DNA of 64,000 nt from the NCBI GenBank assembly GCA_016194745.1, contig JACQBA010000013.1, forward strand, positions 192,822-256,821. The letters are read 5' to 3'. Positions 3,001 to 62,287 of the stretch are shown here, in pieces. Below the pieces are notes generated by a model. It was given only the letters and a program-made list of their open reading frames with translations, was not told the DNA's origin and made no database searches. The stretch is from Elusimicrobiota bacterium. Lineage in GTDB: Bacteria; Elusimicrobiota; Elusimicrobia; UBA1565; JACRDR01. Within the stretch, counting starts at the first letter, position 1, and every line of letters begins with the position of its first letter. Made by a program: the position numbers and the translations under genes.

Positions 3001-6000
3001 CGGAAGTGCAGGCCGCCGCGTCCCGATACCCGCAGTCCGAATACCGCGGCGAAAGCGGCCAACGATGCTTTCTGCGGCGTCGGCAAGGACTCGGTCCGGG
3101 GGAAATTCACGTGTCCCGGCACTTCGGTAACCAGGTAGTGCCTCCGAAAAGGCCAGAAGCCGCGAGAGAACGCCTCGGCGCGCGGTACCGAGAGGGCCCC
3201 GGCCAATTCAGCTGGGAGCACGCCAGAGACCGCTCGAAGCGCGAGCTCACTCTCGATGGCCGCTCGGCTGCGCGCTTCCTTAATTAGGTAGAAGCGGCTG
3301 CGCCAGCCGTTTTCGCCGCGAACGGTGACGAGGGTCTCCGCCACGCCTCCGCCGCGCCTCTGCGGGACCGACCACGCGTTCTCCGACTGAGGCGGCCTCA
3401 CGGGATCGAATCCGAGGACTTGGGCCGCGTCGCGGCGGGTCGTCCAACCGTTGGACAAGGAGCGGTTGTCGTTGGCCGGCGATCGGGGCGCGGACCTCGT
3501 CTCGGTCCGCCGCAGCATGACCCCGGCCGTCAGCACGGCCGCCGCCAGGATCGTCCCGGACCCGAGCGTCGTCGCGAGGTCCACCACCGGCAACAGCGCC
3601 GTCGCCAGCGTGCCGGCGTGGGAGACGGTCGGCAGCGTGATCACGGCGGCCCCGAGGATCAGCTTCGGCCCAAGATGCCACCGTCGCGGACCAGGCGCGC
3701 CTACGGGCGGCTCGCGGCCGGCGCCGGGCGAACCGTGCCCGGGCACCGGCGTACCCCGGACCGGAGCCAGGAGCTCTTCCGGGACGACCCCGAGCTCCAG
3801 CATCTCGCCGATCGTCGAACGCATGCGCTCGATGAACGCTTGATTGTGGGTGGCCTCGGAGCCGGGCTCCCACGCGTGCGAGTTCTCGTGGACGACGTCC
3901 TCGATCAGCTTGGTGACGTACTGGTAGTCCTCGTCGGCGGTCGTGCGCCGTTCGGCGACCCGCACGATCCAATCGAAGTAGTCCTTCATCGCCCGGGTAT
4001 TCAGGCTGATCCAATCCTTGCCGAAGACGGCGAGCCGCGGCGATTCCGTGATGCCGAAGCTCACGCGGTACGGCGCGGAGGCGTCGTAGAAGTGGCGCTC
4101 CACCATCGTGCCGGTCACCTGCGCCAGCGCATCGCCGGCGCGCCCGAGGAGGGACGGAGCTCGTCGCTCCGCGACCGGCCGCATGACGCCCGAGATGAAT
4201 GCCGCCAAGAGCTGCCGGCCGCGCTGGCCTCGCTCGCTCGCGACGCTGGCGGGGTCTTCAAACGCCCAGGTGTCCTGCTCAGCCTTGATCATCAACGACT
4301 CGCCGAAATCTCCAAGCGCCTCGCGGATCATCGCGTCGTAGCCCGACAATCCGGTCGAGAGGTTCTCCATCGCGTCCCGGAACGCCCGCCGCGACGGCAT
4401 GTTCTGGGATGCCCCGCCGCCCTGGCGTGACGCCGCCCCGCCGCCGGTTCCCGCCCCGTCCTTGGAAGCGTCCTCCATGATCCGGGCGCTCCTCTGCTTC
4501 ACCATGTCGCGAAGCTTCTCCCGTTCGCGCAGCAGCGAATTGGGGCGGCCGCCGCGCTCGAACTCCACGGACGCGACGAGGTAGGCGAGCAAGCCTCCGG
4601 AGTCGTCCGCCTTGATCTCCTCCACAAGCCGCTTTGCGTTCATGCGGTCCCACCGCGGCCGGTTCATCTTGACCGCCCACGCGAACGCCCTCCGCTCCAG
4701 CGGGACCAGTCTGTTCGCCAAGTGGACCGGTTCGTAGAGGTAATCGGCGGGCAATCCGCGCGGCCGCCAGCGGCTCTCGGCCACGGCGAGCGCCGCTGCC
4801 CGGAGCACCGCCACCAGCACGGCCCGCTGCAGACGCTCCATGTAGCGGTCTTTTTCGGCCAGGCCGCTGCGGTTGCGGTTGAGCACGATGGAATGGCGCT
4901 GCGCCGATAGGCTCGTCGGAAGGTCCAGCGTGAAGCGGCTCGTATGGACGAACTCCATGAGCTCGGGCGGGACGAGTTCCCACACGCGCGGATCCTGCAC
5001 GAGATCCATGACGAAGAAGCCGGCTTGGGTGAGGCGCTTCTTCCGCGACGACGTCTCGACGAGCGCAAGGGCCTCCCCCTTCTGCCACTGAACGGAGGCG
5101 CGCTCCGTCACGATCTCCGTCACCGCCTTGCCGTCGAAGGTCACGGTCGCGCCGCGGCGAGACAGGACTCCCCCGAACGTCTGGAGGCTGTCCCCGATCA
5201 TCGCAGCCTCGAGCTCCATCGCGTCCCGGCTCGACTCAAAGGAGCGGTCGAAGTTCTTCATCCATTCGACGCGTGTCCCGACGAACTCCCCCTTTTGCTC
5301 GGACATCCGCTCGACCTTCCAAACGAAGCTTCCGTCCGCCGCGACTTCCTTATATACCTCCAGGACCGTGTGGCGTCCTCTGCCCCTCATGCCGGTGACC
5401 ACTCGGACGCGATCGGAACCGACCAGGAACTTGTACCAGCCTCTCCCGTTGAATCCAAGGGACGGGTCCTGTCCTTCGCGATGGCTGGTGCTCCCCACGG
5501 ACATTAGGAACCGCAGGACCGAGTAGGGATCCATGCCTACGCCGTAGTCCCGCACGCCCACGACCAGCCGCGACGAGAAGGTTCCGGTCCGCTGGCCGTA
5601 CACGCCGACGTCGACGACCGGCTCGACCCCGGCCTCTTCCGACGCCTTGATCGCGTTCTGGATGCCTTCGCGGACGAACTCGTGCCCCGACTCGGGCTGT
5701 AGCATGCGTTGAAGCGCGTCTTCGCTGCCCGAGAAGCGGCGCTGCGGGAGCGAATCCACGAGCATGTCCACCGTCAGCCGGCGCCCCGCTTTCTCGATGA
5801 AGGCGAAACTCTCCCAGGCCGACGCCAACGTCGATACTAGAATCCCTCTCAACACGCGACCGATGGCCGGCCCGTTGTCCGAGACGATCGGCCGCTCCTC
5901 GATGGGGACCTCGACCTCTTGCCGTTTCAGATAATCGATCAACGGCAGGGACTCCTCGCGAGAGTCTTTCACGAGCAGATCGAAGCGCCCCCCCAGGGAA

Positions 6001-9000
6001 CGCGCAAGATCGAGCGCTCGCTTCTCGTCCGCCCCGAGGACTCTGAGCCAGCGTCCTACGATTTGATTGAAGCGCGCGTCGTCGGCCACCGTCTCATGCA
6101 CGCCTTGGAGGAATGCAAAGGCTTCCCGCTGATGGCGCTCCATCAGATTGGAGACGCGCGACGCCCAGAGGGGCTCGTTCTCCCGGCTGAGGCGGTCGAT
6201 GGTCGGGATCTCCACGAACGGCAGCCCGAAGCCGAGGCGCTGCAGGCGTTCCGCCGGCCACGACAGACGCAGCAGGTTCTCGGCCAGGCGCAGTCGCTCC
6301 GCCTCCCGGAGGCCCGAGGAGAACTTCGGCAGCGAGGAGAGCGCTCCGGCGCCCACGTGCATCATGCCGTTCGCCGAGTCAGTCAAGCGCCATAGGCTCT
6401 TGCTGTCCTTGCGGGACATGACGATGACGCCGCCCGTGGTGCCCCTGCCAGTGAAAATGTGATACGGGGTGCCGATGCCCGGGAGAGGCACGAAGCGGCC
6501 CTCTTCGATTCGGCCGATGATCGAACCGTCTGAATAGGAGTTGTCCGCGACGATGACCTCGCTTCCGAAGATCCTGAAGTACGAGCCGCGAAGTCCCTCG
6601 AGCGGCACCCATTGATTGCCCTTGAGGACGTGACCCTGGCTCAGGTTGCGCTCCCCCTCGATGCCAATGAACGTGAATCCGTTCGCCAAGGTCGAGCTGG
6701 AATGGCGCTTGCCCGGCGGGTTGTCGATCGGAACGATCTGGCCGTCCTTGATCCAGAGATAGTTGTGCCGCCCATGGACCAAGACGCCGTCGGCATCGAT
6801 GCGCTCGATGAACGGTTGGTAGTCGTAGTCCCTGTCCTTCTTCAGCTCGCCGAGCTTCGCCGCTCGATCCCCGCTCAGCTCGTAGAACTCGGTGAACGTG
6901 CCGTCCCGGCGCTGGACCTCGAACTGAACGACTCTGCGGCCGGATCCGAACCGCTCGGAGAACAGCCCGCCGTAGGGCGACATGCCCTCCATCGGGATCA
7001 TCCGGCCCTCGTGGAATCGATGGACCCGGATCTCGCCGCTGTCCATGCGCTTGAGGAGGTACCCGTTGTCGGTGAGCGGGTCCGCCACATGAATGATGTA
7101 ATCCGGCGTGACGCCCCTATGCTCGACGACCCACTCTTCGCCCTTCCGGACCTGGATCTCGAAACTGTCATCGTTCCCGCGGAGCACTCCCACGTAGACC
7201 TTATCCCCGTGGACGGCGTACGCGGTAACCTTCCTGGCGTTGAATTTGCCAACGAGAATCGCGCGTTCGCCTCTGATCTCGTACAGGGCCGCCCCGTCCG
7301 AGTGCATCGTGGCGATGAACGTCCTTCCGTCCAGGACATGGACGCGATCGATCCATCGCACGTCGGAGATCCCGTCGATCTTCACGCCCCTGCCTAGGTT
7401 GCCCCGTACGTGGAAGACGCCGACTTCGCCTGCCGAGTTCTGCGCGACCGTGAACTCTCCGCCCCGCCCGCTGACCGGCGACCATCCTTCCATGCCCGGC
7501 AGAAGTCCGGATCGGCGCCCCTGAAGGAGGTAGTACGCCGTATTTCCCCTCTCGTCCGTCACGGTGACGACCGGCGCCCGCGCGCCCTCCACCCGTTGGA
7601 TATTGCGGACGTGCCTCATGCCGTCCACCACCTCGAGCCCCTGAGACGTCGCATAGTACAGCGTCAGGAGCTTCTCCGTTCCGCCATATGAGCCGTCCGG
7701 CTTTGCCGGCAATTCCCTCGACGTCTCGGTCAAGACGTAGCCGTCCGGGATAGAATGCCCGCCGGAACCTCCCCACTCGCGAGGCCCAAGATGAACGGTC
7801 ATCTGAGAAATCGCTTCATAGGGGAGGTTAGGCGCATGGCGGTAGACCTGGACGATCCTCGCCAACTTGGCTTTCAACTCCGCCGGTGACGCTCCGGTAC
7901 GGAGGAGATCTCGAACGACAGGCACGAGGTACTCGTGCAGCCCCGGGCTGACAGACCGCGGATGCTCGGACGCGTCCAGCCCGGCGAAGAAGCGCTCGGC
8001 CGCCGCCTGCGCGACCTTGAAGGGATCGACCGGAACCGCCTCGCGGGCGGGCGTCCGCTCCTGCGTCGGCGCGACCGTCGTCTCCGCCTCCGGCCGCACC
8101 GCGTGCTCGGCTCCCGCGCCGACGTTGAGCAGCACCGCCTCCGGCGGCGGGCGCTTGCCGTAGTCGTGCCAGACGTTCATGAAGGCGTTGAGCAGCATCG
8201 GCCCGAAGCCCTTGAGCGCCCACTTCATGTGCCGGTCGACGAGCTTCGAGTCGAAGAGGATGATGCGGTCGCCGACGCGGACGAACAGCGTCTTGAGCGG
8301 TACCGACCATAGGGCTTTTCCGTTCCCCGGCAGCGCCTTGCCGCCCACGGTCTCAGGGTTGAAGTCCCACAACTGCGAGTCGAGGGCGACGGGGGTGCGG
8401 CCCCGGAGCGCCTCTCCCCTCAAGCTGCCGAGCAGCCCGGCGGGGACGACCACGAAGTCCGCGTTCGCCGCCATCCGATCGACCGCCGCCGCGACGCGCG
8501 TGCGCAGGTGCTCGAAAAGGTCGTCCTCCTTGCTTACGCTCTCGACTCGGTTCTTGATACGGTTCTCGCTGTTGTTGATCTCGGAGAACGCCGCCGCGAG
8601 GGCGTTGAGCACGGGCGCCAGGCGCTCCGGGTTCTTCTCGAAGGCGACCAACGTTCGGTCGACGAGCCGCTTCAGGGAGTCGATGGCGTTCTTTCCGAAC
8701 ACGATCCGTACCCGGTCCTCCTCCTGGGTCACGCCGACCGGGAGGTCGACGATCACCGATCGCGCCACGGCGTCTCCCTTGACGGGGATGCGCTCGACGA
8801 TCGTGCCGCCGACCGCGATGACGAGTTCTCCCTCGCGTCTGGCCTTGCCGCGGCCGTAGAAAATCGATTCCTGCGCCACTCCTTCGCCGCGGCTCAGCCC
8901 GCGCGCAAGCTCGCCCGCCGTCCGGTTGCCGGAGGCGCTCGGGATAGTCAGGAGCTCCGCCACCGTCGTGGGGCCGAGTCCGCGGCCTTGGTCCCGCACC

Positions 9001-12000
9001 ACGATCTCCCGGCCTTCTCCGGCGATCTCGACCCGGACCGGCCGGCGGTCCCCGAGCCGGTAGTCGACCGTCTTTCCCTCGACGGTCAGGTATGGATCGA
9101 GCCCGTTGATCCAAGTCTCGAGATTCCCGTCATTGAACAGGATCACGCCGCGCCGGCTCAGGCCGAGGCGATCGCGGAGATTGTCGCGCAAGCCGACGGC
9201 GTCGACCGCCTCGTTCTTCCTAAGCCGGACTTCGGCAAAGCTCTCCGTCGCGGGCGGAACTTCGCGGCTGCCCATACGGAGCCACAGTTCGCCGTCCGCG
9301 CGATGGAACTCGACCCAGTACTCGCGGCCGGGATGCTCCTTCGAGACGCCGCGGAAGGTCACGCTCTCGCCGTTCGCCTTGACCCAGCCGACGGCCTGAT
9401 AGACGCCCATCCCGAATCGGCCGATCGCGTCGCCCATCGCGTCGAAGCCGTTGTTGACAAGCTCGACGATCGCCTGACCGGCGGTCTCGGTCTGCCGCGT
9501 GAGGTCGGTGTCGAGGCGGGCCGGCTTGAAGAGGAAGCCGTCTCGGACCGCCTGTTCGGCCATCCTCTTCATCGATTGGGCGAGCGCTTCCGGAGAGGCG
9601 TCATGCAGTGCTTCGGTATAGAGTCCCCGGGTCCGGGAGAGCGCATCCTCGTTCTGGTCGCGCAGATGACGCATCAGAGAGACGTAAAGGTCCGTCCTCA
9701 TGCCGTGCTCCTTGTGGACGAAGGCCTCGACCGAGCGCTGACCTGAAAGGGTCACGGGATCGAGCGGAGGCGCCGCGGGGCCTTTGATCTTCTCCAACGC
9801 GGTCCTCAGGAATCCTCGGGGTGCCGCCGGAGCGATCGGCCTACCCGCCGGCTCCTCGATTCGGGCCGTCGCCTCGCGGCTCGTGGCAGCGCGTCCCTTC
9901 GCCCATCTCACGGCGAGCCAGCCGCCGACGGCCGCGGCGCCCGCGGCGGCCAGCGCGACGAGGGGCACGATCCCCGCCCCGTCCGAGAAGACCTGGCCAA
10001 GAGTGTCGGCCCTTGCCCCCGGGATGCGGCCCATCAGCGCGGAGGCGAACGCGAGCGGCCCGGCGATCAGGAGAGCCAATCGGGCCGCCATGTCGGAGCC
10101 CCGTCCGGGTTCCTTCGGAGCCGGGCCACGCATCGACTCGAGAAGCTCTTCCGGCGCCACCTTCTTCCTTGCGATCTCCATCAGCGTATCCATCATGCGC
10201 CGCAGGAACGCCGCGTCGTGCGTCTCCTTGCCGCCGGGCTCCATCGAGTGGGTGTCCTCGTGCACGACGCCCTCGAGAATCTGGCCCAGCGCGTCGAAAT
10301 CTTCGCGCGCCGTCGTCTGGCGCCGCTGTGCGCGGCCGACCCATTCCAACAGACCCTGCGCCCGCGCAACGTTGAGACTGAACGAGTCCTTCGTGTAGAT
10401 ACCGATCGTGTCCACGTTCTTGCGTCCGAAGCCGACCGAATAGCGCTTGTCCGCATCTCGGAAGCGTCCCGGCATCACCGGGTCCATGAAGCCTTTGACC
10501 AGCGTCGAGAAGAAGCCCCTCTGGCGGCGCTCTTGTCTCGTCAGAGTCGCGGAATCTTCCTTGACCCAAACGCGATCGGAGGCGGTCTCGGTCAAGCTCT
10601 CCATGCGGGCCTCTTGAACCTCGCGAACCATCGAGGCTAAGCCGGCGGGCAGCGTTTTAGGATCGACGGTCTCCCTCGCGCGCGCCGCCCGATGCAGTTC
10701 CTCTCGAAGGCCCGCCAAAGATTGGGTCTTGCCGTTCCATTGGAATTCCGCCGAGGCGACGATATGGGCGAGGCGGGAGCCGCCCTCGTCGTGCGCGAAT
10801 GCGGCCTCGATCGTCCTGCGGTCGGCCGAAGGCCACCGGTCGCTTCCCAGCGCGCGGGCCGCATCCATCGCACTCGCCCGCAGACCGGCGGTCGCCTGCC
10901 AGTTCGCCTCGGCGCGGTAGAGATAATCGGGAGGCAGGCCGGAAGGAGTCCACCGTCCCTCGGCCGTCGCGACGGCGGCCGCCTGCACGACGGCCGCGAG
11001 CACGGCCAACTGCAGGCGCTCGAGGTACCGTCCCTTCTCCGCCAACCCGCTTCGGTCCCAGTCCAGCGAGATGGAGTAGCGATGCGCTCTGGAGCTGGAC
11101 GGCAAGTCGAGGCTCAGGCCCTGCTGGCGTACGAAGTCTCGAAGCTCTTCGGGCACCAACGTCCAAAGGTCCGGGTCGCGGAATACGTCCCCGATCCACT
11201 GCCCGGACTGTAGGAGCCGCCGCTTCTTGGAAGACGTCTCGACGATCCGCACACGCTCGCCTTTCGCCCACTCCACTCCACCGACCTCGCGGACCGTCTC
11301 CGCGAGGTCTCGGCCGTTGAAGTCGAGCGAGACGCCGCGGCCGCCCAGCGCTCCGGAGAATGTCTCCAGGCTGTCGGCGAGGAGAGCGGCCCGCAGGCGC
11401 ATGCCAAATCTTCCGTCGTCGCGGCCGCGCGTTACGGCAAGCCATTCGATCTCGGTCCCGAGGAACTCCCCGCGAACCTCGGCCAGGCGCGCCACCTTCC
11501 AGACATAGCTCCCGTCCTCTTGGTAGTCGCGGACCACCTCCAGCACCGTATGGTGCGACGCACCCCGCTTGCCGGTGCGGACCTGCACGGCATCCGAACC
11601 CGCGAGGAACTTGTACCAGCCCCGGCCGTTGAAGCCGAGGGCGGAGTCCTCGTTCTCGCCGCGTCCGCTGCGATCGATCGGCAGCAGGAAGTTGAGGACT
11701 TCATAGAGGTCCATCCCGACGCCCCGGTCCCGAAGCCGCGCGGCGAGGCGTTCGCGGCCGCCCACGCGGCGGGTACCCACGCTCAGCTCCACGCGCGTCG
11801 GCTCGGGCGACTTCACCACCACCGGCCGGCGGGCCACCCAGGCAATCAGCGCGCGGCCCCAGCCGGCCGCTCTCGCCGCCCAATTCGAGATTTCCCGTCC
11901 GCCGGCGTTGATCCGTTCGATCGCTTTCAGGGCGTTCTGAACGCCTTCTCGCAGCTTTTCGTCGCCCGCGTCGGGCCCCTGCGCGTCCCGGATGGTCTTG

Positions 12001-15000
12001 TTCGTCGCTTCAAACCCCGTCTCGGGCGCGCCCTCGGGGAGGTCGGCCAGCCGCAGCGCGTGTCCGCGACGCTGCACGACGCCGAGCCTCGCGCGGGCGG
12101 TCGCGAGCTCCGCGAGCATCATGCCCGAGCGCTGGGCCAGCACGCGGTCCCCCTCGTCCTCCCGCTCCAAATGGCTGATGGTCTCCGATTTGGCGTCACC
12201 GCGCAGGTATTCCACGATGGGCGTAGCCCGCTCATTCAAGGCGGCGAGGATGGAGTAGCGTCCCGCCAGATACTCAATCGCGTCGAACGCGGACATGGGG
12301 TTCGACTCGAGGACGTCGATCAGCCGGTTCACGGCGTCGTTGAACGCCCGGTCGTCCGCTAGCACGCGGCCCGCGCCCACGAGGAAGGCGCCAACGTCCC
12401 TCCGTTCGAGCTCGGACCAGCTGCGCATCGCCTCGGCCAATCGCGCTTCGACGGCCGACGACAACCGCGACAGCGTCGCTCCGTCCGCGAACGGCAGCGC
12501 CCAAGCCAGACGTCCCCAGCGCGCCGCCGGCCAGTCCATCGACAGCAGGTTCGTGGCGAGCCGGACCTTTTCATCGGACCTCAAGCCGGCGGTGATCGCG
12601 ACGCCGAGAATCTCCCGCGTCACCGCATCCATGGAAGCGTCGCGGATATGGGACGTCGGGTCGGCAAGGTCGCGGGTTAGCCATTGATGAGAGTCCTGCC
12701 GCTTGTATGCCGCGCGCAGACGCCCAGGCTGATCGCGCACGACCATCAGCTCCTCGAGCCTCGTCATCCCGGGCAGCGGATCGGCACCCGACGCCGTAAG
12801 CTCGAAGAGAGAGCGCGCCGTCTCCCGCTGTGCGACCCAGAAATGCGTCTCGACGAGCCATCGTCCGCCGCCGAGCCGGCGGAATTGATAGGGCCGATGC
12901 TGCTCGACGGCCGCGCGATGCGCCAACCCCGGGACCGGCTGTGCGCCGCCGCCCCGGACCTCGTACAATTCGAAGTGCAGATCGTGCTCTTGGACCGAGA
13001 CGAATATCCTGCTGCCGATCATCCGGACTTCGCCCACGCGCTTTTTGCCCTCGATGCCTGCGATCGGGATCACCCGTCCTTCGTCCAGGACGGCCAGGGT
13101 CTCCCGCTCATCGCCGATCTTGCGCGATTCGCGGTCCTTGACGACGACGAACGTGCGTCCGTTGAGCTCTACCGGATGGTGCACGCCCATCCCCGCCCCC
13201 GCCTCGATCGTCCGCGCCCCATCGCCGCGCAACTCCATCTCCACATAGTTGCCGCCGCGATTGACCATCGCGATGGCGCGGTCTCCGACGAATTCCAGCA
13301 TCACGATCCTATCCGCGTCGACGCCAGGCAGCTGCACCGGCCGGTTGGCTCCGTCGCCGATCCGTTGGATCTGTCCGCGCTCCTCCTCCGAACCGAGGTG
13401 GGCGACCAGGCGATCGCCGATGAAGCCGAAGGAGTAGATGATGTGGTTGTGGGTGACCAACCGTTCGGCGCGATTTCCCTTGAGTTCGTAGAGGCTCTCG
13501 ATCAACGTGTCATGGCCGTACGTGGGCCTCTGTTCCGTCGCCTTAACGAACAACCGGCCTTGTATCTCCACGACGTCGTCGAAGTGCTCCTTGTCCCTTA
13601 GGCCCTCGATCGGCTCGGCCTTGCCGCCGCGGATCTCGTAGAGCGTCACCGGCCGCCGCCAATCCACGTTCTTATCGATCACCCAGACGAACGTACGGCC
13701 TCCTGCTTCCGTGACCGATCCCACTGCGTCCCTGTCTTGGAGTCCTTCCACCGGCACGACGCCGTCCGGCCCGCCGCGCAACAGCGAGAACTTTTCGCCG
13801 TCCTTCGTGACGATGTACTCACCCTCCGGGCGGAAAGGCGTCTTTCTTCCGGGCATCTCGAACGGGACTCCAAGGAGCGCGTCCGACGGGACCCGCTGCT
13901 CCATCATCGCCAGCACCGAGCGGACGCGCTCGAGACGTCGGGCGATGGTATCGCGGTCCACGCCGGCGACGAGCCCGTCGACGACCGCGGGATGGAGCTG
14001 ATCGGCCGACTCCCGGAGCTCCGCCCGTTGGAGGAGGTCCCTCGCCGGCGCTTCGTGGTCGAGCCGCACGCCCCGCGTCGCTCGTACGTCCGGCGCGTGC
14101 TCGCGGTGCAGGCCCGGCTCGGCCTCGATCGGCGGCTTCACCCCGTAGCCGCTCCACTTCCGGACCATGATCATCACCGCCAGCATCACGGGTGCGTGCC
14201 CCGGGAGAGCCTGCGCCTGATAGTGGTCGAGCAGCTCCTTGCTGAAGAGGATCATTTCGTCGCCAATCCAGGCGATCGGCCGCTCCATCCTGACCGACCA
14301 CATGCTCTTGCCCGAGCCCGGCACCGGGACGCCGCCCAGCGTCGCTGGATCGAAGTCCCAGAGCCGAGGATCGAGCGGTATCGGCCGGCGACCCCCGAGC
14401 GCTTCGGTGCTCCAGCCGAGTTCCTCGGCCACCGCCGGCACCGCGACATGGTCTTCGCCGAAGCGGCGGACGATCTGGGATACGCGCTCCCGAAGGTTGA
14501 GCAACAGGTTGTCGCCCGAAGTCGTCCCTTTCACGCGGCTAGCCTTGTGAAGCTCGTGGAGCGCGGCGGCGAGCCCATTGACGACGGGCGCCATCTCTTG
14601 CGGGTTGCGCTCGAACGCGACCGAAACCTCCCGGATCGCCCTCTTCATCGACGCCAGAGTCGGCGCGTCCAAGATGAGCTGCGTTCGCGACGGCTTGAGT
14701 GAAATCCAGCCGGGCAGACTGACGACGATCTCGGGCGCGACGTTGACGCCCTTGACCTCGATCGACTCGACGACGGCGCCTCCCGCGGTGATCAGCACTC
14801 TGCCCCGCTGGGCCGGCGCGTCCGCCCCGCGGTAGTAGACCGACTCCGTCCTCGGCAGTTCCTCGCGGGCGACCCGGAGCTCAAGCTCCGCGGCCGAGGG
14901 CTTCGTCGACAAACCGGGCACCGGGAGCGTCTCCATCGCCACGGTCGCCTTCATCCCTTCGCCGGTGTCGATGACGCGGATCTCCCGCCCTCCGTCCAAG

Positions 15001-36000: not shown

Positions 36001-39000
36001 TCGGGCTGACGGTCCTGCAGAGAGATATACGCCGCCGCCTGGATCGACCCCTTCGCGACGAATTCCGGCGGCAGCAGCCGCGACGCCTCTACGAAGCGCG
36101 CCTCGATCGCTCCGTGAAGCTCCAGCTCGCGGTCGATCATCTGTTCTGGAGTGAGGAGCTGGTGACCGAGGCGATTGAGCTCGAGACGGTTCACCCTCAC
36201 GACCTCCTCGTAGAGCTGCATCATCGACAGCACTTCCGCCCGCCCGTCACGCACGGCGCGGTAGGCCGCTTCGGGCCAAGCCAATGGCGAGCGGATCAAC
36301 GCATCGACGGCCGCAGTGCGGGCAGTGCGGAATGCGTCCGAGTTCAGCCAGGCGTTGATCTCGCCGATCGCCTCTGTCTGCCGGCGCGTGTCCGCCAGGC
36401 GGAAGGCGGTCGTCCGGCCTTCCTCGCGGATACGGTACGTCCGCGCCAAGCCGATGGAGTCGCGCCGGGAGGAATCCATGGTGTGGAGTTCGTCGCCGCC
36501 GTCACCGACCCGTTCCAACTCCCGATTCTTGAACTCGATCGCGGCATGCGGGTTGTAGCCTGCCTCCTCCATACGCGCGAACGATTTGATGTCGACCTCC
36601 GTCTCCATCGTCCGCCAGAGGAGGTCGGCACGCTTCTGATCGGCGCTCTTGCTCGAGGCTCGCAGTTTCTCAATGACGGGCAGCAGCTCAGCCACGCCGT
36701 GCGAGAGCTCGTGACCGATGAGGAAGGCGAGCTCGTCGTCGCTGCGCACTGCGCGAAGCAGGCCCAGCGTAAGCAGTACCGCCTTCTCGCCCGGCTTGCC
36801 TCCGGGAGCCTTTGAGAGATCGGCGAACATGCCGTTGACTCGCATGTCGTCGACGACGGCGATGCGGATTGGGCCCTTGCCGTCCTCCGGCAGGAGCAGG
36901 CGTTCGACCATCTCCTTGATCTTCGGCATCACGCTGCGCAGGGACGGATGCAGCGACGGATCGACGAAGCGCAGCTTCTCGTTGTGCATGGCCCACCGCA
37001 GGGCCTCGCTGTCCGTACGGCCGATCTCCCCGACGACCAGCGCCTGCGAGACTCCCGCGGCGCGGCGCGCGTCGATCTCCGCCCGCTTCGTCTCCCGCGC
37101 GGCAGCCAGCGCGGCTTCGCGCCGGTCGTCGAGGTAATCCCTCACGCGCCGAACGACGGCACGCACCGTCAAGACGGTGAGCAGGGACCCGCCGAAGAGG
37201 ACCGCGTCCGCGAACACGCCGATGGCGGCGTCGATCGCGTGCGGCGCCCCCGCATCCCGCGCGATCGCGACTCCGACTCCCGCCTTAGAGAGCGACCACG
37301 CCGCCGGCGCCAGCACGAGCGCCGCGAGGAGTCCGCGCCCCTTGCGGGACGGCTTCGGGTCGGCCCGCCGGTCGTCGGCGGACTTGACCTTGTCGGCCGG
37401 CTCCCTGGGCGCGCGACCGGCCACCTCGCTCGCCACGCTCGCCGCCACGGACTCCGGCCGCGCGGCGGCGCGCAGCGCCTGGTCGATCACGTTGTCCTTG
37501 ATGGATCCCTTCGGCCGCGCCGCCATGGCCTCGCGGACCACCTTCTCCGGGATGACGCCCAGCCTGGCCATTTCCAAGAAGGTGTTCTCCATCCGCGCGA
37601 GGAACGCGTCGTTGTGCGTCTCCTCCCCGGTGCCTTCCAACGCGTGCGTGTGCTCGTGGACCACGTCGCGGACGATCTCGGCGAGCTTTTTGAAGTTCTC
37701 CTCGGGAGTCGACTCGCCGCGCTCGAGGCGCACGGCCCAGTCCAGCCAGTCCCGGACGCCGCCTTCGAACTTGCCGGATTTTTCGTTCAATCTGCCGCCG
37801 TTCAAGCTGATCCAATCCCTGCCGAACATGGCGAGCCGGGAGCCGGCGGACTCGCCGAAGCCGACTTTATACGCCTGCCTCGGGTCCATGAAGTGCCGGT
37901 TCACTTCGAATACGCCCCTGAGGACGGACGCGACGGCTCCGATGCCGCCGGTCGGCTCCCTAAGCCGCTGCTCCTCGATGACGCGCCGCATCAGACTCGA
38001 GACAAGCGTCGCGAGGAGCGCGCGGGCTCTGCGCTCCTCGACCGGGAGCCTCGCGGCGTCCACGTACGTCCATGCGTCGTCGCTCCGCCTGGCTCCGGCA
38101 AGGTCCGCGAAGCCGGTGGCCGCTTCGCGTCCTCGCGAGGCGTACCCCGCCGGCTCTCCGCTCCAATCGTGGGTCTTCAGCGCTTTCTTGCGCGCCATCG
38201 AGACGACCGATTCGCGCAGTTTCGCCAGGGAATTGATGCGTCCGGGCCCGTACGCGACCTCGACCGACGCGAGGAAATGCGCCAGGAAGGCTCCTTCCGC
38301 GTCCTCGCGGAATGCCCGGCGCAGGCCGGCGGCGTCCAGGCTCTCCCAGCGCCCGCCGTTGAGCCGCCGCGCGTGCTTCGCCGCCGGACCCGCCGCTCCG
38401 GCATTCATCAAGTGCTCCGACCGGTAGACGTAGTCCACCGGCAGTCCCTGCGGCTTCCACGTGCCCTCGGCGATGGCCCGCGCGGCCGCCTGGGCGACCG
38501 CCGTCAGGACCGCCGCCTGCAGCCTCTCGAGGTAGCGGGAGGTCCCAGCCAGGTCGCCCCGCTCGTGGCCCTCCAGGTCGATCGTATAGCGATGGCGGTT
38601 CTGGCTGGACGGCAGGTCGATGCTCAGCTTCTGCTCCTTCATGAAGTCGCGCAGCTCCTGAGGCACGAGCTCCCACAACGCCGGATTGCGGTTGATGTCC
38701 ATGACGAAGAGCCCGCTCTGCAGGAGCCGCTGCTTTCCCGAGGAGGTCTCGATGACGCGCACGCGCTCGCCCGGAGCCCACTCGACCGAGGCGCGCTCCG
38801 TCACCGTCTCCGCGATGTCGACGCCGTTGAACTCGATCTTGATCCCGCGCTCGCCCAGCCCGCCCACGAAAGTCTCCAGCTTGTCGCCCATGACGGCCGC
38901 GTCCAGTTCCGCCAGGATGCGGTTGCTGTCGGGGCGGCCGCTCAAGTCGCGGCTCCACTCCATGAGGGTGCCTTCGAACTCCCCTCTCACCTCGCGGAGG

Positions 39001-42000
39001 CTGTCGACGCGCCAGTGACCGTCCTCCGCGCGCGACGCCTCGAGGATCACGTGCACGGGGGCGCGCGTGCCGTCCACCAGCTTCCCGCTGACCACCCGCA
39101 CACGGTCCGCGCCGGCGCGGATCTTGTGCCAGCCTCGACCGTTGATCCCGAGCGCGGAGTCCTGCCCCTCGCCTCCGGTCGTGCCTCCGATCGGAAGCAA
39201 GGTATGGACGATGTCGAACACGTCCATGCCGACGCCGCGGTCGCGGACGGAGCCGATGATCCGCGTCTTGCCGTCCACCTCCTGCATGCCGATGCCGACT
39301 TCGACCGCCACCTCTTCGGGCTTGCGGCCCGCGACGAGCGAGGCCTTCACCGAGTTCTGCACGAGCTCCCTCAATTTCTCGTCACCCGCGGGCCCGCGCG
39401 CATCCTCGAGCACCTTGTCCATGTCGGCCGAACGACGGTCCTGGACGCGCCCCTTGAGATCCTGGACGCGAAGTTCGTGACCCTTGGTCTTGAGGAGGGA
39501 GTCTCGAGCTCGCAGAGAGACCAGTTCCGACAACGGGAAGCCGCCGATTCCGGCGACGACGTCCTCCTTTCCGGACGTTTCGACGGCCCGAACGACCACC
39601 GGCCGCAGCGTCGTCTCGCCGCGGAGGAACGCCACCATCGGCGAGCGATGCGTCGACAGCTCGTTGACGAGCTCGTGGAAGCGGCCCTTCAACGCCGCGG
39701 CGAGCTCGATGGCGCGGCGCGGATCCGCTTCGAAGAGCCGGAGCCAGCGCTCCATGATCGCCCGCATGTTGATCGACGTCGTCGCTTGCCCGACGCCCTG
39801 CAGGAACTTCCCCGCCTCCCTCTGATACGCCTCGTTATAGGCTCCGATCTTGCTCCAAGCCGGCAGCAGGTGGCTCAAGCCGCTGACGTAATAGGAATGC
39901 ACGAACGGGAGCGACCAGCCCTGCGCCCTCGTCATCTCATCGGTCCACGTGATCCTGAGCAGATTTTCGGCGAGCTGGCGCTTCTCGTGATCCTTGAGTC
40001 CCGGCGCGACCTCCACTCGCACATCGACCGCCTTATGCGACACGTTCTCGAGCGCGGGCCTCGGCTCGCCCGCGAACCACGTGTCGTTCGTAAGCGCGGC
40101 GGCGTCGCCCTTGCGCGCCAAGACGCGCGGGGACGAATGCGCATTCGGCTTATAGACGACCAGCTGGCGGTATCCACCTTCGATGGTTGGAGGGAAGTGA
40201 GGCAGGAGCTCGAAGCCGTGCTCAAGGCCGTAAAGACCGTAACCGTTGCTGTCCCTGGGCTTGGCGACGACGTATCCCATCGGACTGACAGGCTCGATGC
40301 TCCAGGCGCCGACGATCCGAGTTTTGACCACGTCCCGCTCGATCTCGTAGAGGACCGAGGTCTCGTGCCGCTCGCCCGCGCCGTTGACGAACACCCGGCC
40401 GTTGAAGGATTCCAGCTCGAGCTTCGCCTCGGTGAACGGGAGATCGAATCGCCGCACCTGGTCGCCGACGATCTCGAAGAGCTGCGATCGGTGCTCCAGC
40501 GTCTTCGCGTTCACGAATAGGCGTCCTCCGATTTCGACGGGTTGCTTGAACGCATATCCCTCCATCCCCGAGAAAGGGACAGCCCGCTCGCCCTTGATCT
40601 CGAAGAGCTGCGTCGTCTTGTCGTTGTTGTAGCGGATCACGAACTCCCTCTGGCCGACCTGAACCGGAGTCGGAAGCCCCCACTCGGCATCTAGGAGCTT
40701 GATCCGCCGACCGCCTTCGATGGCGTGAAGCTCGCCGCCCTCGCCCTCCGGGCGCATCAAGTACGTGTAGAGCCGGTTGCCGAGGCGGACGGGATAGGAC
40801 CAGTGACGGCCGTCCACGGCCGGCAAGTCTATCTCCTCGGTTTCGCCTCTATGGAACAGGGTGAACCGCTCCGCGGCTTTGCCGTACGGGACGAACAAGA
40901 CCTGGTTGGCGGCGTCGTGCTTGAGAACATGGACTTGGCCCATGCCGGTGACCGGCCGAACGTCGCTCAGCGGTCCGATTTGGAAAACATCCAGCATTGA
41001 TTTCGAGACAGAGGAGACGCCGGCGATAACGTGATCGCCCGCGGACCACACTTCGATCTGCTTGGAGGGCCCTACGATCCTGCGCGTCGCGTTGGGCGTG
41101 ATCTCATGCATCGAATAGTTCGAGTCCTTATCGAGCACCACGATCAACGGCGCCGCGGTCGGCCGAAGATGGAGGGTGTATGATCGAACGTCCTCGAAGC
41201 CCTTCAACGGCGAGAACCCGTAGTAGTCGATCCGATGAATGGACAAGGACGCCGGGTTCGATCCATTCTTGAGCACGACCAGCCCCAACTCGGGGTAGAT
41301 CTTCTCCACGGTTCCTTCTCTGGAGAACGTCGAGCCGCTTCGGACTATCACGTCGATGGGGAAATCCGGGTGAGCGCCGTAAACCGACGAGATGCGAGCC
41401 AGCACCTCGCGGACGGTCGTCTCTCCCGAGGCTCGGAGCGCGTTCTCGACGTAAGGCGTCAGAAGTTCGATGAGGCGCGCCTTAAGCGAGCGATCCACCA
41501 CGAGCACCTCGTTCATGAGACTGACGGCGCGAGCGGCGCCTCCCTCGTCGCTCGCCGCAAGAGCTTCGATGACCTTGGGGGCGGACAGCGCCTCGGCAGT
41601 CCCTCCTTCCGAGGTCGCCTTGTCTCCGTCGTGGGACCCCGTGTCCCCGGCGGACTTCCTTTCTCGGAGAGGGTTCGCCGCCAGGCGCGCTTCCACTCTC
41701 GGTTTGCGCGTGTAGCCGTCATCCTTGACGCCGATCTCCTCTCCCAGAACGAAAGGCTGTCCCTCGTAGGCATGCCTCTGGTGCTCCTCCACGAGCGACC
41801 GGCTCCACATGACGACGTCGCCCACCCGGACGATCGGTTCGGCCATGTCGACCGCCCACGAAGCCTTGCCGGTGCCCTCCAGCCGCTCCCCGCCGACCGT
41901 CTCGGGCTTGAATTTCCAGAGGCGGCCGTCGAGATGGACCGCCCGCAGTCCCTCGGCGAGCCGGATGTCGAGAGGGACCTCGGCCGCGGGCAGCAATACG

Positions 42001-45000
42001 CGTCCCTCGAGGGATTCCGATAGAGCCGCGACGGCTCTCTCCAGGTGGAGGACCAGGTTGTTTTCGTTGCGGGCGGCGAACGCCGCGTCGGCCGGCTGGA
42101 TGCGCGTGGCCTCCTGCATTTGGCGCAGGACTTCCGAGAGCGCGTTGACGACGGGCGCCAGCCGCTCGGGCGAGTCGCGGAACGCCAGGACGGTCCTGTC
42201 GATGGCCTCCTTCAGCGACCGGACTGCGCCCTCGTTGAGGATGATTTGGGTACGGGAGGTGGAGAGGCGGACGCCCGGCGGCAGGTCGACGATGACCTGC
42301 GGCGCGACGTTCGGACCCTTCACCGTGATGATCTCGACCGGCGTTCCGCCCACCGAGATGATGACCTTCCCCTCCTGGTTGAACGGCTGGAGCGCGCCGT
42401 CTTTTCCTCGCTCCGGCGCCGGAATGGGGCGGAACAGCACCGGCTGGTCCGCCTGCTCGGCGGCCTTGCGGGCCAAGAGGCGGCGTTCCTGCTCGGCCGC
42501 GCTCGGCTTTTCAGAAAGACCTGACACCGGCAGGGACTCGGCCGCCGCCCGCGCCTCGAGGCCCGCTCCATCGTCCCGTACGACGATCCGCCGGCCGCCG
42601 GCGGCGATCTCGACGGCGACGCTCCCCTCCGGGATCATGTAGCGCGCCGGCTGGCCGTCCAGCGAGGTGAGGTGCTCGATCTCGTTGATCGTCCGGCCGT
42701 CCACCACGATCCGGCCCCGCCGATTGAGGCCGAGACGCTCCGCGAGATATTCGCGGAGCCCGGTTTCGTTGATCCCGTTCTTTAAGTCCAGCGTCACCGT
42801 GGTCCCGTCGCGGTCCTGCGACACGGCGTCCCGCCGGTCGATCTTCACCCACAGCTCCCCGTCCACCTTGGAAAAGCGGACGGTGAAGACGCTGCGGTTG
42901 TCGCCGCGCGGCCGGCTCTCGAACGTCAGGCTGTCGCCGTTCGACTTGAGCCAGCCGATCGCCTGGTAGACGCCGATGCCGAAGCGGCCGGTGGGATCGC
43001 CCATCGCGTCGAAGCCGTTGTTGATGAGCTCGACGATCGCCTGGTGGTCGGAGACCGTCTGCCGCTCGAGCTCGAAGTCGAGGCGCTCCGACTCGAAAGC
43101 GAATCCTTTTCGCACGAGCCTCGCCGCCTCGCCCACCATGAGGCGCTCGAAGGCGCCGGGCTCCTTGGACTCGAGCGCGGCTCCGTAGCGGGCGCGCAAG
43201 GCCTCGGGATCGTTCCGGCGGAGTTCTTTGATCAGGGGAGCGTACAGGTCGAGCCGCAGGCCGCGCGTCGGATCGGCGAAGACTTCGAGCGCGGCCTCGC
43301 CGTGGATGCGGGATTCCCCGTTGAGGAATCGGGAAGGGCCGGCCGCGAGCCGCGCGACCCATCTCACGAACCGCTGGCGCAAAGTCGGCGCCGGAGGCCG
43401 TATCGGGGCGGGCGCCGTCTGCTCCTTAGGAGGCGCCCGCGGCTGGGAGCCGAGCGTCTCCGCATCCTTTTCAGTCGTGCCCTCCGTCTTCGACGGCTCG
43501 CGCACCGCCGTATCGTTCTTCGCCACGGGTCGGCCGGTGACCTCGGCGCCCTGCTGCGATCCCTGGCGGCGCTCCCCTTCCGGCGCGCTCGAGACCTCGC
43601 CCTCCGACGACTCCCTCATCACCACGTAGCGCGTCGCCGCGCCCTTGGCCAAGCCCTCATAGATCGCCTTGCCGTTCCTTCGGTTGGTCGACAAGTCGAG
43701 CCATTGCCCGTCTCGATACTCTTCGTACCTGATCACTTTGTTGGGACCGTGGAGCCGCGCGGAGGCGATCGGCTTGCCGTCCGCGTCGAGGTGCACGACT
43801 CGGAAGAGCCCTCGTTCGCCGTGAGGCACATTCAAGCCTGCCAGCGCTTTGTCGAGCCGGTTCGGCTTGATCTCTAGTCCATGGTAGGGCGCGAAGGGTT
43901 GGAGTCGGAGCGGCGCGACCGGCTTGGGCGGCGTCCTCGTTTCGGCTGGAGCCTTCTCGTCCGGAACTCTATCCTCGGGCTCGCCGTTGAGCCGACGGAG
44001 CCGATCCTTGAGCGCCGAGATGATCCCGTCCTGCTCGGCGATCGCCCGATCGAGCTCCGCCCGCTCCCGATCGCGGCGCGCCATCGCCTCGCCGAGGTCG
44101 GCCAGGTCTTTCGTCATGGTCTTCTTCTTGGATTTCTCGCGCTCGAGGGACTGCTTCGCGTTGCGCGCGGCACGCAATGCCTCCTCGGCGGCCGCAAGGT
44201 CAGTGGACCGATCTACCCCGGCGAGGGCCTTCTCTATTGAATCCAGAGACGCTCGAGCCTTCGCCTCCGCGATCCTTGCGTCGGTCAACGCTTCCCTGGC
44301 CGCATCGAGCCTGGCTAGAGCGGACTGTATCTCCGCCTCTGGCGACCGTTGCGCCCGCAGCGCCTCGAGTTCGGCTCTCGCGCGGGCCAGCGCCGTCTGC
44401 GCTCGGAGCGTCGCGGCGGTCGCGACCCGGAGCAGCCGCTGCGCCGCCCGAACTTCGGGATGCGCGTTCACATCCAGCGGCGGCCGCAGGTTTGAGGGCT
44501 GCCTCACGGTCTCAGGAGCGCCGGCCTTCGCCTGCGCCAGCTCGCGCGACACCTGCACCCGGAGCTGGTAATATTGAGCCTGGTCCTTCGCGCGAGGGTT
44601 CGTGCTGGCGCCAAGGGCCTCCGACAGGACCGATGTCGCCGCCTTCACTTCCAGCCTCAGTTCGTCGACCCTTTGGCTTTGAGCGGAGATCCGCGCCGCG
44701 ATCTCTTGGGCGCGCTTCGCCTCCGCTTCCGCGTCGGCCCTGGCCAAACGGCGCGAGGCCTGGCGCTTCAGCAGGGCGCGACCGACCTGGAAGGTGATCA
44801 TGATCGGCGCCAAGAACAAGGGATTGATGGAAGCTCCGACGGTCCAAAGGGCCGCCAAGACGCCGTCCGCCGCGTGGGCGGCCGCCGGAAGCTTGAAGAT
44901 CATCACGGCGGCGAGCGCGGAGCTCAGCGCGAGCTTAGCTTTGGAGCTCAACGGAAGATTGCGGTCGGAGTTGCTAGCCTCGGCCGGCCTACTCGCTTCA

Positions 45001-61319: not shown

Positions 61320-61337
61320 ATAGAGGGGTTACGAGTT

Positions 61338-61395: not shown

Positions 61396-61412
61396 ACGCG
61401 CGCGCGCGCGTA
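61395..61412. repeat. 18-bp alternating pyrimidine-purine tract tacgcgcgcgcgcgcgta, i.e. (CG)7, Z-DNA-prone and palindromic
   Basis: Seen directly in the sequence. Confidence 0.8.
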
Positions 61413-61633: not shown

Positions 61634-62287
61634 ATGCGCGACGCTGATATCCACTCGATAGTGCCCATCCTAAAGCGCGAGGTACGGCGCTGGAAAGTCC
61701 CGGTCGTGGGGGTCGTGGCGGAAGACGAGGACCCATTCCTCGTTTTGGTCTCGACGTTGCTCAGCCTGCGCACGAAAGACGCGGTGACCGAAGCGGCCGG
61801 CGAGCGCTTGTTCAAGCTCGCGCGCACGCCGGAGGCGCTGCTCAAGCTCCCGCTCAAAACCATCGAGCGCGCGATCTATCCCGTCTGCTTCTACCGCGTC
61901 AAGGCGAAGACGCTGCGCGGCGTCGCGCGAGACTTGATCGATCGCTTCGACGGACGCGTGCCGGACGATCTCGACGCCCTCCTCTCGCTGAAGGGCGTCG
62001 GCCGCAAGACCGCGAACCTCGTCGTCACGCTGGGGTTTCGCAAGCCGGGCATCTGCGTCGACATCCACGTGCACAGGATCTCCAATCGCCTCGGCTACGT
62101 CCGCACGAAGACGCCCGACGAGACGGAGGCGGCGCTGCGCGAGAAGCTCCCGCGCAAATACTGGATGATCTTCAACGACCTGCTCGTGCCGTACGGGCAG
62201 AACCTATGCGCTCCGGTCTCGCCGTGGTGCAGCCGCTGCAAGATCGCGGCGTACTGCAAGAAGCGCGGCGTGACGCGCAGCCGCTAG
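61634..62287 (+). CDS. nth: Endonuclease III (base-excision-repair DNA glycosylase/AP lyase) of the HhH-GPD family, with a C-terminal 4Fe-4S cysteine cluster
   Basis: Translation contains LLSLRTKD, LLSLKGVGRKTANLV (helix-hairpin-helix Gly/Pro-rich loop region), DIHVHRISNRLG and C-x7-C-x2-C-x5-C (CAPVSPWCSRCKIAAYC). Confidence 0.85.
   Translation: MRDADIHSIVPILKREVRRWKVPVVGVVAEDEDPFLVLVSTLLSLRTKDAVTEAAGERLFKLARTPEALLKLPLKTIERAIYPVCFYRVKAKTLRGVARDLIDRFDGRVPDDLDALLSLKGVGRKTANLVVTLGFRKPGICVDIHVHRISNRLGYVRTKTPDETEAALREKLPRKYWMIFNDLLVPYGQNLCAPVSPWCSRCKIAAYCKKRGVTRSR

Follow-up and report, generated by a model that had tools for sequence, protein, structure and literature searches.

The 64,000-nucleotide window analyzed here (contig JACQBA010000013.1, positions 192,822 to 256,821) derives from an uncultured Elusimicrobiota bacterium, and the sequence belongs to a metagenome-assembled genome (MAG). 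The window has a G+C content of 67% and is nearly filled by one giant gene on the minus strand. This gene contains three copies of a module of about 2,000 amino acids (modules A, B, and C), each of which combines two predicted GHKL ATP-binding domains, Y and X, with a predicted zinc metallopeptidase (zincin) domain at its end. A stop-to-stop scan of the window identified a single open reading frame (ORF) from position 3 to position 61328, which comprises 20,442 codons and zero stops. The first ATG is at 61319, giving a gene of >20,439 codons that crosses the left edge of the window, so that its C terminus lies beyond it. Every 3-kb bin of this frame had a G+C content of 0.81 to 0.88 at third codon positions (GC3) and 0.44 to 0.53 at second codon positions (GC2). 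Because these values were uniform in all bins, the whole 61 kb can be taken as coding in one frame, in agreement with an initial annotation of this DNA, which had treated the locus as one polypeptide. The N terminus of the giant protein is signal-peptide- or anchor-like (MVRFVRLFKKFLAIVVSASLL...AWA/AP).

Chunked self-BLASTP of the giant protein revealed three collinear copies of ~2,000 amino acids that share 33 to 48% protein identity, with E values down to 1e-93. By this analysis, the copies extend over residues ~5969 to 7981 (A), ~15205 to 17134 (B), and ~17158 to 19243 (C), and their three-way alignment had a mean column identity of 56%. Profile hidden Markov models (HMMs) of both conserved halves of the module each found exactly three matches across the giant protein; a fourth, degenerate module was considered and rejected, since the half-module HMMs match at three sites only. 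Thus, the three copies in the same order that were described in the initial annotation are borne out: the self-alignment it had proposed as a check gave significant similarity among all three intervals, its landmark coordinates for Y, X, the HExxH motif, and the transmembrane (TM) segments were all recovered, and the three peptides it quoted occur verbatim. At the DNA level, the likeness between copies is confined to patches of 38 to 805 bp at 65 to 89% identity, and an assembly duplicate is excluded because of this divergence. No copy has lost an ATP-binding motif or a predicted metal-ligand motif.

The module also exists as a protein in its own right. When 1.84 billion cluster representatives (50%-identity clusters) were searched exhaustively with a HMMER profile, 353 proteins were recovered at an E value of ≤1e-3, including 145 at ≤1e-10. 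Among the 110 listed matches of at least 1,400 amino acids, the median length was 2,021 amino acids, and 96 contained both Y and X. Most are soluble stand-alone proteins of 1,700 to 2,100 amino acids, with the X-zincin half at the extreme C terminus. A word-indexed protein search returned two relatives only, P0001 and P0002, while a scan of genome contigs returned the same two loci and a scan of metagenome contigs returned one close relative; the giant gene itself was absent from all three. P0001 (1,856 amino acids), from an Elusimicrobiota MAG, is one complete free-standing module with no TM segment, and P0002 (3,456 amino acids) carries one module flanked by TM helices. A further member, P0003 (5,875 amino acids), contains two tandem modules that are 69% identical and joined by a TM hairpin. 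Named members come from Elusimicrobiota, Omnitrophota, Patescibacteria, and "bacterium F11" and are annotated as "hypothetical protein" or "ATP-binding protein." The Pfam, NCBIfam, and PADLOC collections contain no model that covers the module or the family, and literature searches on combinations of sacsin, WLM, and GHKL found nothing relevant. The module therefore represents an unnamed, uncharacterized bacterial family, normally a single stand-alone protein of ~2,000 amino acids, and a new architecture made of known domains. The initial annotation, which could match the architecture to no described family, was correct on this point: the full-length relatives that we checked are themselves annotated only as hypothetical or ATP-binding. 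Its description of an architecture iterated within one polypeptide holds for the three copies here and needs to be widened, in that the module is also a widespread stand-alone family.

In a neighbor-joining tree of the X-zincin region, modules A, B, and C formed a clade in 85 of 100 bootstraps, and A and B were sisters in 80 of 100, although the tandem pair is B and C. The two modules of P0003 grouped together in 100 of 100. The tree suggests that the duplications that produced A, B, and C are old, internal to this lineage, and not simply tandem, and together with the divergence of the DNA it upholds the ancient intragenic duplications that the initial annotation had proposed. In the subclade nearest to this gene, the module has been multiplied within very long ORFs at least twice independently, to two copies in P0003 and to three here.

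The X domains have the canonical GHKL motif order, with the N-box, G1, and G2 motifs at residues 7321, 7363, and 7394 in A; 16461, 16534, and 16565 in B; and 18554, 18594, and 18625 in C. Pfam gave sub-threshold HATPase_c matches only (E = 1.5e-4), HSP90 and sacsin models were also sub-threshold, and module A had no phmmer match among PDB sequences. A five-sequence X profile was more informative against PDB sequences: it matched the N-domain of yeast HSP82 (E = 1.2e-7) with the N-box, DxGxG, and GxxGxG motifs aligned, and its top 60 matches were all members of the HSP90 family (HSP90, TRAP1, GRP94, and HtpG). An AlphaFold2 model including X had a predicted local distance difference test score (pLDDT) of 60 overall and ~70 to 85 in the GHKL core. 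Foldseek matched this model to the N and middle domains of HSP90, TRAP1, and GRP94 over 404 to 588 columns (E = 1e-6); the next matches were MutL, TopoVI-B, SMCHD1, GyrB, and MORC. The profile and the model both indicate that X is a canonical HSP90-type GHKL ATPase followed by a transducer-like middle domain, in accordance with the HSP90-like ATPase named in the initial annotation. The N-box of X carries a K in place of the D of the canonical ExxxNxxDA. Separately, X_B has a ~40-residue insertion (…INAGGREISNWAARAAGWGRALIAWVARRPVVVK…) between the N-box helix and the first strand (positions 11720 to 11945, minus strand), which A, C, and all relatives lack.

The Y domain carries a perfect HSP90-style N-box (ELINNGFDA). 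The G2 motif follows at +14 and the G1 motif (DxGxG) at +152 to +157, and this order is shared by A, B, C, P0001, P0063, P0047, and P0097. In its native order, Y gave fragmentary, sub-threshold Pfam matches only (in A, 17.9 bits over a 21-residue fragment). An HMM of Y matched the N-terminal domain of distant members (P0052, P0081, P0084, P0037, and P0055) in four pieces with their order swapped (HMM positions 97 to 127, 254 to 296, 131 to 250, and 326 to 478). The N-terminal domains of those distant members have the canonical motif order and match HATPase_c_3 with E values of 1e-10 to 1.6e-14. We then reordered Y in silico, moving the 52-residue G1 segment of A, B, and C to between the N-box and G2. 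Reordering raised the HATPase_c_3 score (cutoff, 25 bits) from 17.9 to 32.4 bits in A and from 13.3 to 27.5 bits in C, while Y_B went from no match to 22.1 bits with HATPase_c, and the reordered matches span most of the profile. Because the HMM pieces match in swapped order, the distant N-terminal domains are positive for HATPase_c_3, and reordering improves the score, we assign Y as a genuine GHKL domain of the HSP90/sacsin type that is permuted in sequence, with the G1 segment ~150 amino acids downstream of the G2 box. The permuted type predominates among the motif-classifiable family representatives (48 permuted and 18 canonical), and the literature searched yielded no account of a GHKL domain or Bergerat fold with a permuted sequence. 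What had been noted as a GHKL N-box is thus a GHKL domain, of a permuted kind that the N-box by itself did not reveal; the HMM searches that had been suggested as a check for GHKL matches were positive above the cutoff for Y_A and Y_C after reordering and gave the sub-threshold HATPase_c matches of X.

Each module ends in a domain with an HExxH motif. The extended motif HExxHxxE-x(4-9)-[TS]H[ND]xxF is found at the C-terminal end of 90 or more family members, and 26 diverse members, when aligned, all had H116, E117, H120, H130, and F134. When the zincin profile was searched against the PDB, the best match was Wss1p (E = 0.004 over ~115 residues), and the next among zincins was Spartan (E = 2.4). 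The Wss1 motif HELTHNLFGPHDKKFY aligned to HE..H....THN..FY in the family profile. Pfam scans of single members matched WLM in 4 of 26 (best E = 9.5e-5) and SprT-like in 2 of 26 but in none of the window's own copies. In the structure model, three short strands (713 to 732) are followed by the HExxH helix (765 to 788) and then by a further helix (797 to 812), a layout that fits a zincin. These comparisons point to a minimal zincin that is nearest to the WLM/SprT group, although the link is marginal. The HExxH zincin of the initial annotation is in this way extended to a motif that is invariant across the family and narrowed to a WLM/SprT-like type.

The interval between Y and X is poorly conserved. 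It spans 500 to 700 amino acids and contains two to four copies of a ~40-amino-acid unit, GRxFV...(L/F)YE(I/L/V)xGxxA, which is also present in P0001 and is probably a beta-repeat or propeller-like element. Hydrophobic segments follow all three modules, and a further hydrophobic hairpin lies just upstream of B. TM segments were called by Kyte-Doolittle hydropathy only; the calls are convincing for B and weaker for A and C (1.5 to 1.74). TM segments also occur ahead of Y in P0002, P0003, P0006, P0007, P0009, and P0010. The hairpin after the module is strong at the equivalent position in P0002, P0006, and P0010, and P0003 has an inter-module hairpin like the one between B and C. TM bracketing is limited to these six nearest relatives, one of which is a named Elusimicrobiota member. 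Hydrophobic helices do follow each copy, as initially described, and clearly so for B, but the hairpin characterizes the closest relatives and not the family as a whole. The coordinates of all features are collected in Table 1.

Table 1. Features of the giant gene and its surroundings, in window coordinates; residues are those of the giant ORF
Feature	Position	Strand	Residues	Motifs or content	Basis
Giant ORF	3..61319	-	>20,439 in total	Holds modules A, B, and C	Stop-free frame and uniform GC3 coding signal
Module A	37446..43376	-	5985-7961	In order: Y, beta repeats, helical stretch, X with middle domain, zincin	
Module B	10104..15785	-	15182-17075		Self-BLASTP, three-way alignment, HMMs
Module C	3747..9818	-	17171-19194	Tandem to B	Self-BLASTP, three-way alignment, HMMs
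Y_A	42474..43076	-	~6085-6285	ELINNGFDA (6100; N-box at 43031), GRFGIGVYQA (6114), DDGAGL (6252)	HATPase_c_3 32.4 bits once reordered
Y_B	14820..15479	-	~15284-15503	EAISNGFDA (15299; N-box at 15434), GRFGVGAFMA (15313), DTGEGM (15454)	HATPase_c 22.1 bits once reordered, just under cutoff
Y_C	8844..9509	-	~17274-17495	ELVNNGFDA (17289; N-box at 9464), GRFGMGVYQA (17303), DQGRGL (17446)	HATPase_c_3 27.5 bits once reordered
X_A	38439..39386	-	~7315-7630	ELVQNSVKA (7321), DRGVGM (7363; DxGxG at 39242), GINGRGWHK (7394)	
X_B	10989..11966	-	~16455-16780	HSP90-like GHKL and middle domain; DxGxG at 11729	
X_C	4749..5687	-	~18548-18860	HSP90-like GHKL and middle domain; DxGxG at 5549	
Zincin_A	37524..37871	-	~7820-7935	VVHEHTHALEGTGEETHNDAF; HExxH at residue 7891 (37658)	
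Zincin_B	10128..10475	-	~16952-17067	VVHEDTHSMEPGGKETHDAAF; HExxH at residue 17023 (10262)	
Zincin_C	3756..4103	-	~19076-19191	VVHENSHAWEPGSEATHNQAF; HExxH at residue 19147 (3890)	
Beta-repeat region of A	40308..40679	-	6884-7007	Three ~40-aa units, GRxFV...(L/F)(F/Y)EIxGxxA	
Beta-repeat region of B	12924..13727	-	15868-16135		
Beta-repeat region of C	6840..7355	-	17992-18163		
Hydrophobic segments after A	37179..37331	-	8000-8050	Weak TM-hairpin candidate	Hydropathy 1.57, 1.72
TM hairpin between B and C	9906..10091	-	17080-17141	Two segments, clearest of the three	Hydropathy 1.76, 1.97
Hydrophobic segments after C	3513..3662	-	19223-19272		Kyte-Doolittle
Hydrophobic hairpin upstream of B	15816..15983	-	15116-15171		Kyte-Doolittle
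M48-like motif region after A and its TM	36684..36947	-	8128-8215	GHELSH (8206)	
M48-like domain after C and its TM	1428..1655	-	19892-19967	AHELTH (19959)	Peptidase_M48, E 3e-13, 50.4 bits
PPDK_N-type domain	20538..21536	-	13265-13597	PEP-synthase/PPDK_N-type ATP-grasp	Pfam, E 8e-26
NTP_transf_5 domain	16938..17192	-	14713-14797	Nucleotidyltransferase	E 5e-9
Additional HExxH	30248	-	10361	AAYLLHELFHYKLG	
UbiB-kinase-like stretch	~32400-32570	-	~9585-9640		E 7.5e-4
Endonuclease III gene (nth)	61634..62287	+			

Each unit therefore combines two predicted HSP90-type ATP-binding heads and one predicted Wss1-like zinc site. GHKL proteins such as HSP90, MutL, GyrB, and MORC close as dimers upon ATP binding. 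By analogy, Y and X would close on one another when ATP binds, either within a unit or between units. The variable beta-repeat region would hold a client, and closure would capture this client and either present it to the adjacent Wss1-like protease or unmask that protease, such that the unit would act as an ATP-gated protease or remodeling machine. In the giant gene product, the three units would hang from membrane hairpins on the cytoplasmic, ATP-containing side; the modules should face the cytoplasm because ATP is needed. The catalytic motifs are invariant across copies that are 33 to 48% identical and across distant relatives, which argues for the units being active enzymes. The account that we consider probable is that the locus encodes three paralogous units of an otherwise stand-alone, unnamed family and that each unit is an ATP-gated GHKL clamp-protease, here tethered to the membrane. 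The domain assignments in this account are well supported by the sequence comparisons, and the mechanism is what we infer from them.

Several points weigh against the clamp-protease account. The enzymatic roles are predictions from sequence and models in every member of the family. The structure models are of moderate confidence (pLDDT of 60 and 67.5, from five-sequence alignments), and structure-based support for Y as a Bergerat fold is weak. Comparison of the Y and X profiles by hhalign gave no meaningful link, probably owing to shallow alignments and to the permutation itself. The similarity of the zincin to Wss1 is marginal at an E value of 0.004, with no Pfam protease model reaching its cutoff. 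The signal-like N terminus and the even or odd count of weak hydrophobic segments permit the modules to lie on either side of the membrane. Finally, the intramolecular clamp between Y and X is purely what we infer.

A stronger form of the clamp-protease account would make these proteins a new class of ATP-dependent protease or remodeling machine, in which a two-headed HSP90-type GHKL clamp, in place of an AAA+ ring, drives or gates a Wss1-like zincin. Y would then be the first recognized permuted Bergerat-fold head, and the giant protein would line up three of these machines on its membrane hairpins to form one assembly line. We offer this extended version as a speculation that is rather unlikely to hold in full.

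A different reading places the family in genetic conflict. The stand-alone proteins could be effectors in the defense or counterdefense of mobile elements, with a DNA-clamping GHKL of the MORC, MutL, or TopoVI-B type and a DNA-dependent Wss1/SprT/ArdC-like protease that destroys DNA-bound proteins, and the giant gene would have co-opted three copies. Wss1 and Spartan, to which the zincin is closest, depend on DNA for their protease activity, the GHKL stretch of the family has a weak PADLOC match to TmtA of the Tiamat system, and several stand-alone members are encoded near mobile-element or toxin-antitoxin genes. The family gene has an integrase and SocA_Panacea beside it in L007; serine recombinases, Prim-Pol, and DUF3800 in L010; IS110 in L012; and M78/DUF4411 and HicAB in L022. 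In L011 (positions 1516 to 13948 of a Logan contig), a ParB_N-N6_N4 methyltransferase gene lies three genes upstream, and a gene for an 857-amino-acid DEAD/ResIII/SNF2 helicase lies 12 bp downstream. Other family members, however, sit among purely housekeeping genes, and in all contexts examined the family gene was solitary, with no conserved partner gene. A tblastn search with P0071 found no match in 72,556 plasmids (PLSDB) or 50,697 phages (INPHARED), and a pattern scan of IMG/VR viral contigs also found none. Moreover, the PADLOC match is limited to generic GHKL motifs and is absent from the window's modules, the GHKL domains are nearest to HSP90, a protein clamp, and not to the DNA-clamp families, and no DNA-binding domain was detected. 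On balance, we find a role in genetic conflict doubtful for this family.

It is also conceivable, if improbable in our judgment, that the giant protein is a polyprotein, in which each module's terminal zincin, possibly along with the M48-like peptidases, cuts at or near the hairpins and frees module-sized proteins. Each module matches free-standing P0001 from end to end, the zincin is the last domain ahead of each hairpin, and M48-like domains follow modules A and C and their TM segments. For other giant bacterial proteins, self-processing has already been suggested (10.1101/2023.11.21.568195). However, the zincin motif is equally strict in stand-alone members, so that processing would not be its primary role, and we identified no conserved cleavage motif. 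The M48-like domains, each of which lies 150 to 700 amino acids past a module and TM segment and which are 33% identical to one another over 85 amino acids, likewise speak against this reading, since the relatives that we checked have no such domain behind their modules; for the same reason, an M48-like domain was rejected as a conserved partner of the module. Peptidase_M48 was also considered as the identity of the module zincin itself and rejected, as its matches fall at residues 8181 to 8212 and 19892 to 19967 and none falls at residue 7891, 17023, or 19147.

We see little prospect for a third reading, a dead scaffold, in which a giant envelope protein retains the GHKL and zincin folds purely as structural repeats without enzymatic function. 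Such a scaffold would fit the scarcity of detectable domains over most of the giant ORF and the N-box substitution in X. However, neither the copies nor the distant relatives show any change in the catalytic E or Mg-binding N of the N-box, in DxGxG or GxxGxG, or in HExxH...H, which indicates selection on active sites. That the repeat is an artefact of assembly duplication, or the ORF a chimeric misassembly, can practically be dismissed: the sequence does come from a MAG, but no supporting sign was found, the copies are too diverged as protein and too patchily alignable as DNA, the frame and its codon signal are continuous over 61 kb, and relatives with one or two modules occur in independent assemblies.

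The remainder of the giant ORF is almost without recognizable domains. A Pfam scan of all 20,442 residues matched PPDK_N, NTP_transf_5, Peptidase_M48, and weak HATPase_c only, and residues 504 to 2003 had no homologue at an E value of ≤1e-3 among 5.8 billion proteins. The PPDK_N-type nucleotide-binding domain occurs with the remainder of the dikinase missing. The NTP_transf_5 domain is located just past a TM hairpin (residues 14641 to 14692) and ~400 amino acids ahead of module B. An additional HExxH motif has no family match, and a weak UbiB-kinase-like stretch was also seen. The divergent upstream neighbor of the giant gene is nth, which encodes an endonuclease III (P0161) that is 100% identical to "MAG: endonuclease III [Elusimicrobia bacterium]"; the context of the giant gene is chromosomal. 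The intergenic region between the giant gene start and nth contains an alternating (CG)7 run at ~61397 to 61410.

Three further observations concern the loci of relatives. The L011 gene set is typical of the anti-restriction regions of conjugative elements. Many stand-alone family genes (L005, L006, L009, and others) are alone on contigs of 6 to 8.7 kb, with no more than a few hundred bases between the gene and the contig ends; this suggests that the flanking sequence resists assembly, as variable or repeated DNA might. At L002 (positions 20368 to 26655), P0002, which has an N-terminal Glyco_hydro_77 match in addition to its one module, overlaps a downstream ORF of 2,095 amino acids without Pfam matches by 4 bp, and the two may be a split giant gene.

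Among known systems, eukaryotic sacsin (SACS) is the nearest architectural analogy. Sacsin is likewise a very large protein with a triplicated supradomain (SIRPT/SRR), each repeat of which is built around an HSP90-like GHKL domain, and the NCBIfam sacsin ATP-binding model is the best domain-level match to the X domain of family members (E = 1e-10). However, sacsin has one GHKL domain per repeat, lacks both a zincin and TM hairpins, and terminates in DnaJ and HEPN domains. The sacsin models also remain below their cutoffs: NF047352 reaches at most 41.4 bits in distant members (cutoff, 50) and does not match module A, and the SACS domain PF25794 scores 14.4 to 14.6 bits (cutoff, 32.8; E = 0.03). 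HSP90, HtpG, TRAP1, and GRP94 resemble X in that their N-domain aligns motif for motif and the X model superposes on their N and middle domains; an HSP90-like, ATP-driven clamp is presumably the mechanism of the unit. Unlike HSP90, the unit has no C-terminal dimerization domain, carries two heads per chain, one of them permuted, and is fused to a protease, and the full-length HSP90 model (NCBIfam PRK14083) gives 18 to 36 bits over the N-domain only, compared to a cutoff of 455.

The zincin resembles Wss1 (WLM)/SPRTN and SprT/ArdC in having HExxH, a third His shortly downstream, and then an aromatic residue (compare HEHTHALEGTGEETHNDAF here with the Wss1 motif above). The spacer to the third His is longer here than in Wss1, and DNA-binding, SIM, and UBZ/VIM modules are absent. 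No fusion of a GHKL domain to a WLM or SprT protein is described in the literature searched. Functionally, the nearest analogy would be FtsH, which also combines an ATPase and an HExxH zinc protease in one membrane-tethered polypeptide; FtsH is an AAA+ hexamer with an M41 zincin, whereas the unit would be a GHKL clamp, and the two share no sequence relationship. To our knowledge, all well-studied energy-dependent proteases (Lon, FtsH, Clp, HslUV, and the proteasome) use AAA+ motors, and a conserved fusion of an HSP90-type head to a protease would point to another means by which ATP could be linked to proteolysis or to the handling of clients. Tiamat TmtA is similar as a large single-gene protein with a sacsin/HSP90-like GHKL domain. 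Its matches are weak (X of P0063, E = 9e-6; X of P0097, E = 5e-3) and cover ~80 residues of GHKL motifs, with none in module A, the other window modules, P0001, or P0056, and its remaining architecture is unrelated.

Giant proteins have been described for related bacteria in a preprint (10.1101/2023.11.21.568195). It reports that Omnitrophota and other PVC bacteria encode giant multi-TM proteins ("Archaeovorins") with SecA-DEAD, C39/S8 peptidase, and glycan-degrading domains, and it lists Elusimicrobiota among the phyla with genes encoding at least 10,000 amino acids. The protein studied here is similar in being encoded by an ORF of >20,000 amino acids within the PVC supergroup, as that preprint delimits it, in having many predicted TM segments, and in being mostly unannotatable. 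It differs in that SecA-DEAD, C39/S8, dockerin, and glycan-active domains were not found by Pfam across the whole ORF, and a GHKL-zincin module is not mentioned for the Omnitrophota proteins in the portion of the preprint available (10.1101/2023.11.21.568195).

These comparisons bear on how such proteins are found and studied. The family has several hundred representatives without a name, a model, or literature, and its named members come from poorly understood uncultured lineages. As the permuted GHKL domain shows, an entire branch of the superfamily systematically escapes curated HMMs, a practical lesson for the annotation of "dark" giant proteins. The independent twofold and threefold multiplications show that giant genes can grow by concatenating whole proteins via TM hairpins, and the soluble, single-module P0001 offers an experimentally tractable entry to a protein of >20,000 amino acids. 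Collectively, the unit appears to resemble an HSP90/sacsin head joined to a Wss1/SprT/ArdC-type protease, yet it falls within none of those families; what it adds to them is an unnamed family with two ATPases and a WLM-like zincin, a permuted GHKL domain missed by curated models, and a gene of >20,000 codons that has grown by concatenation.

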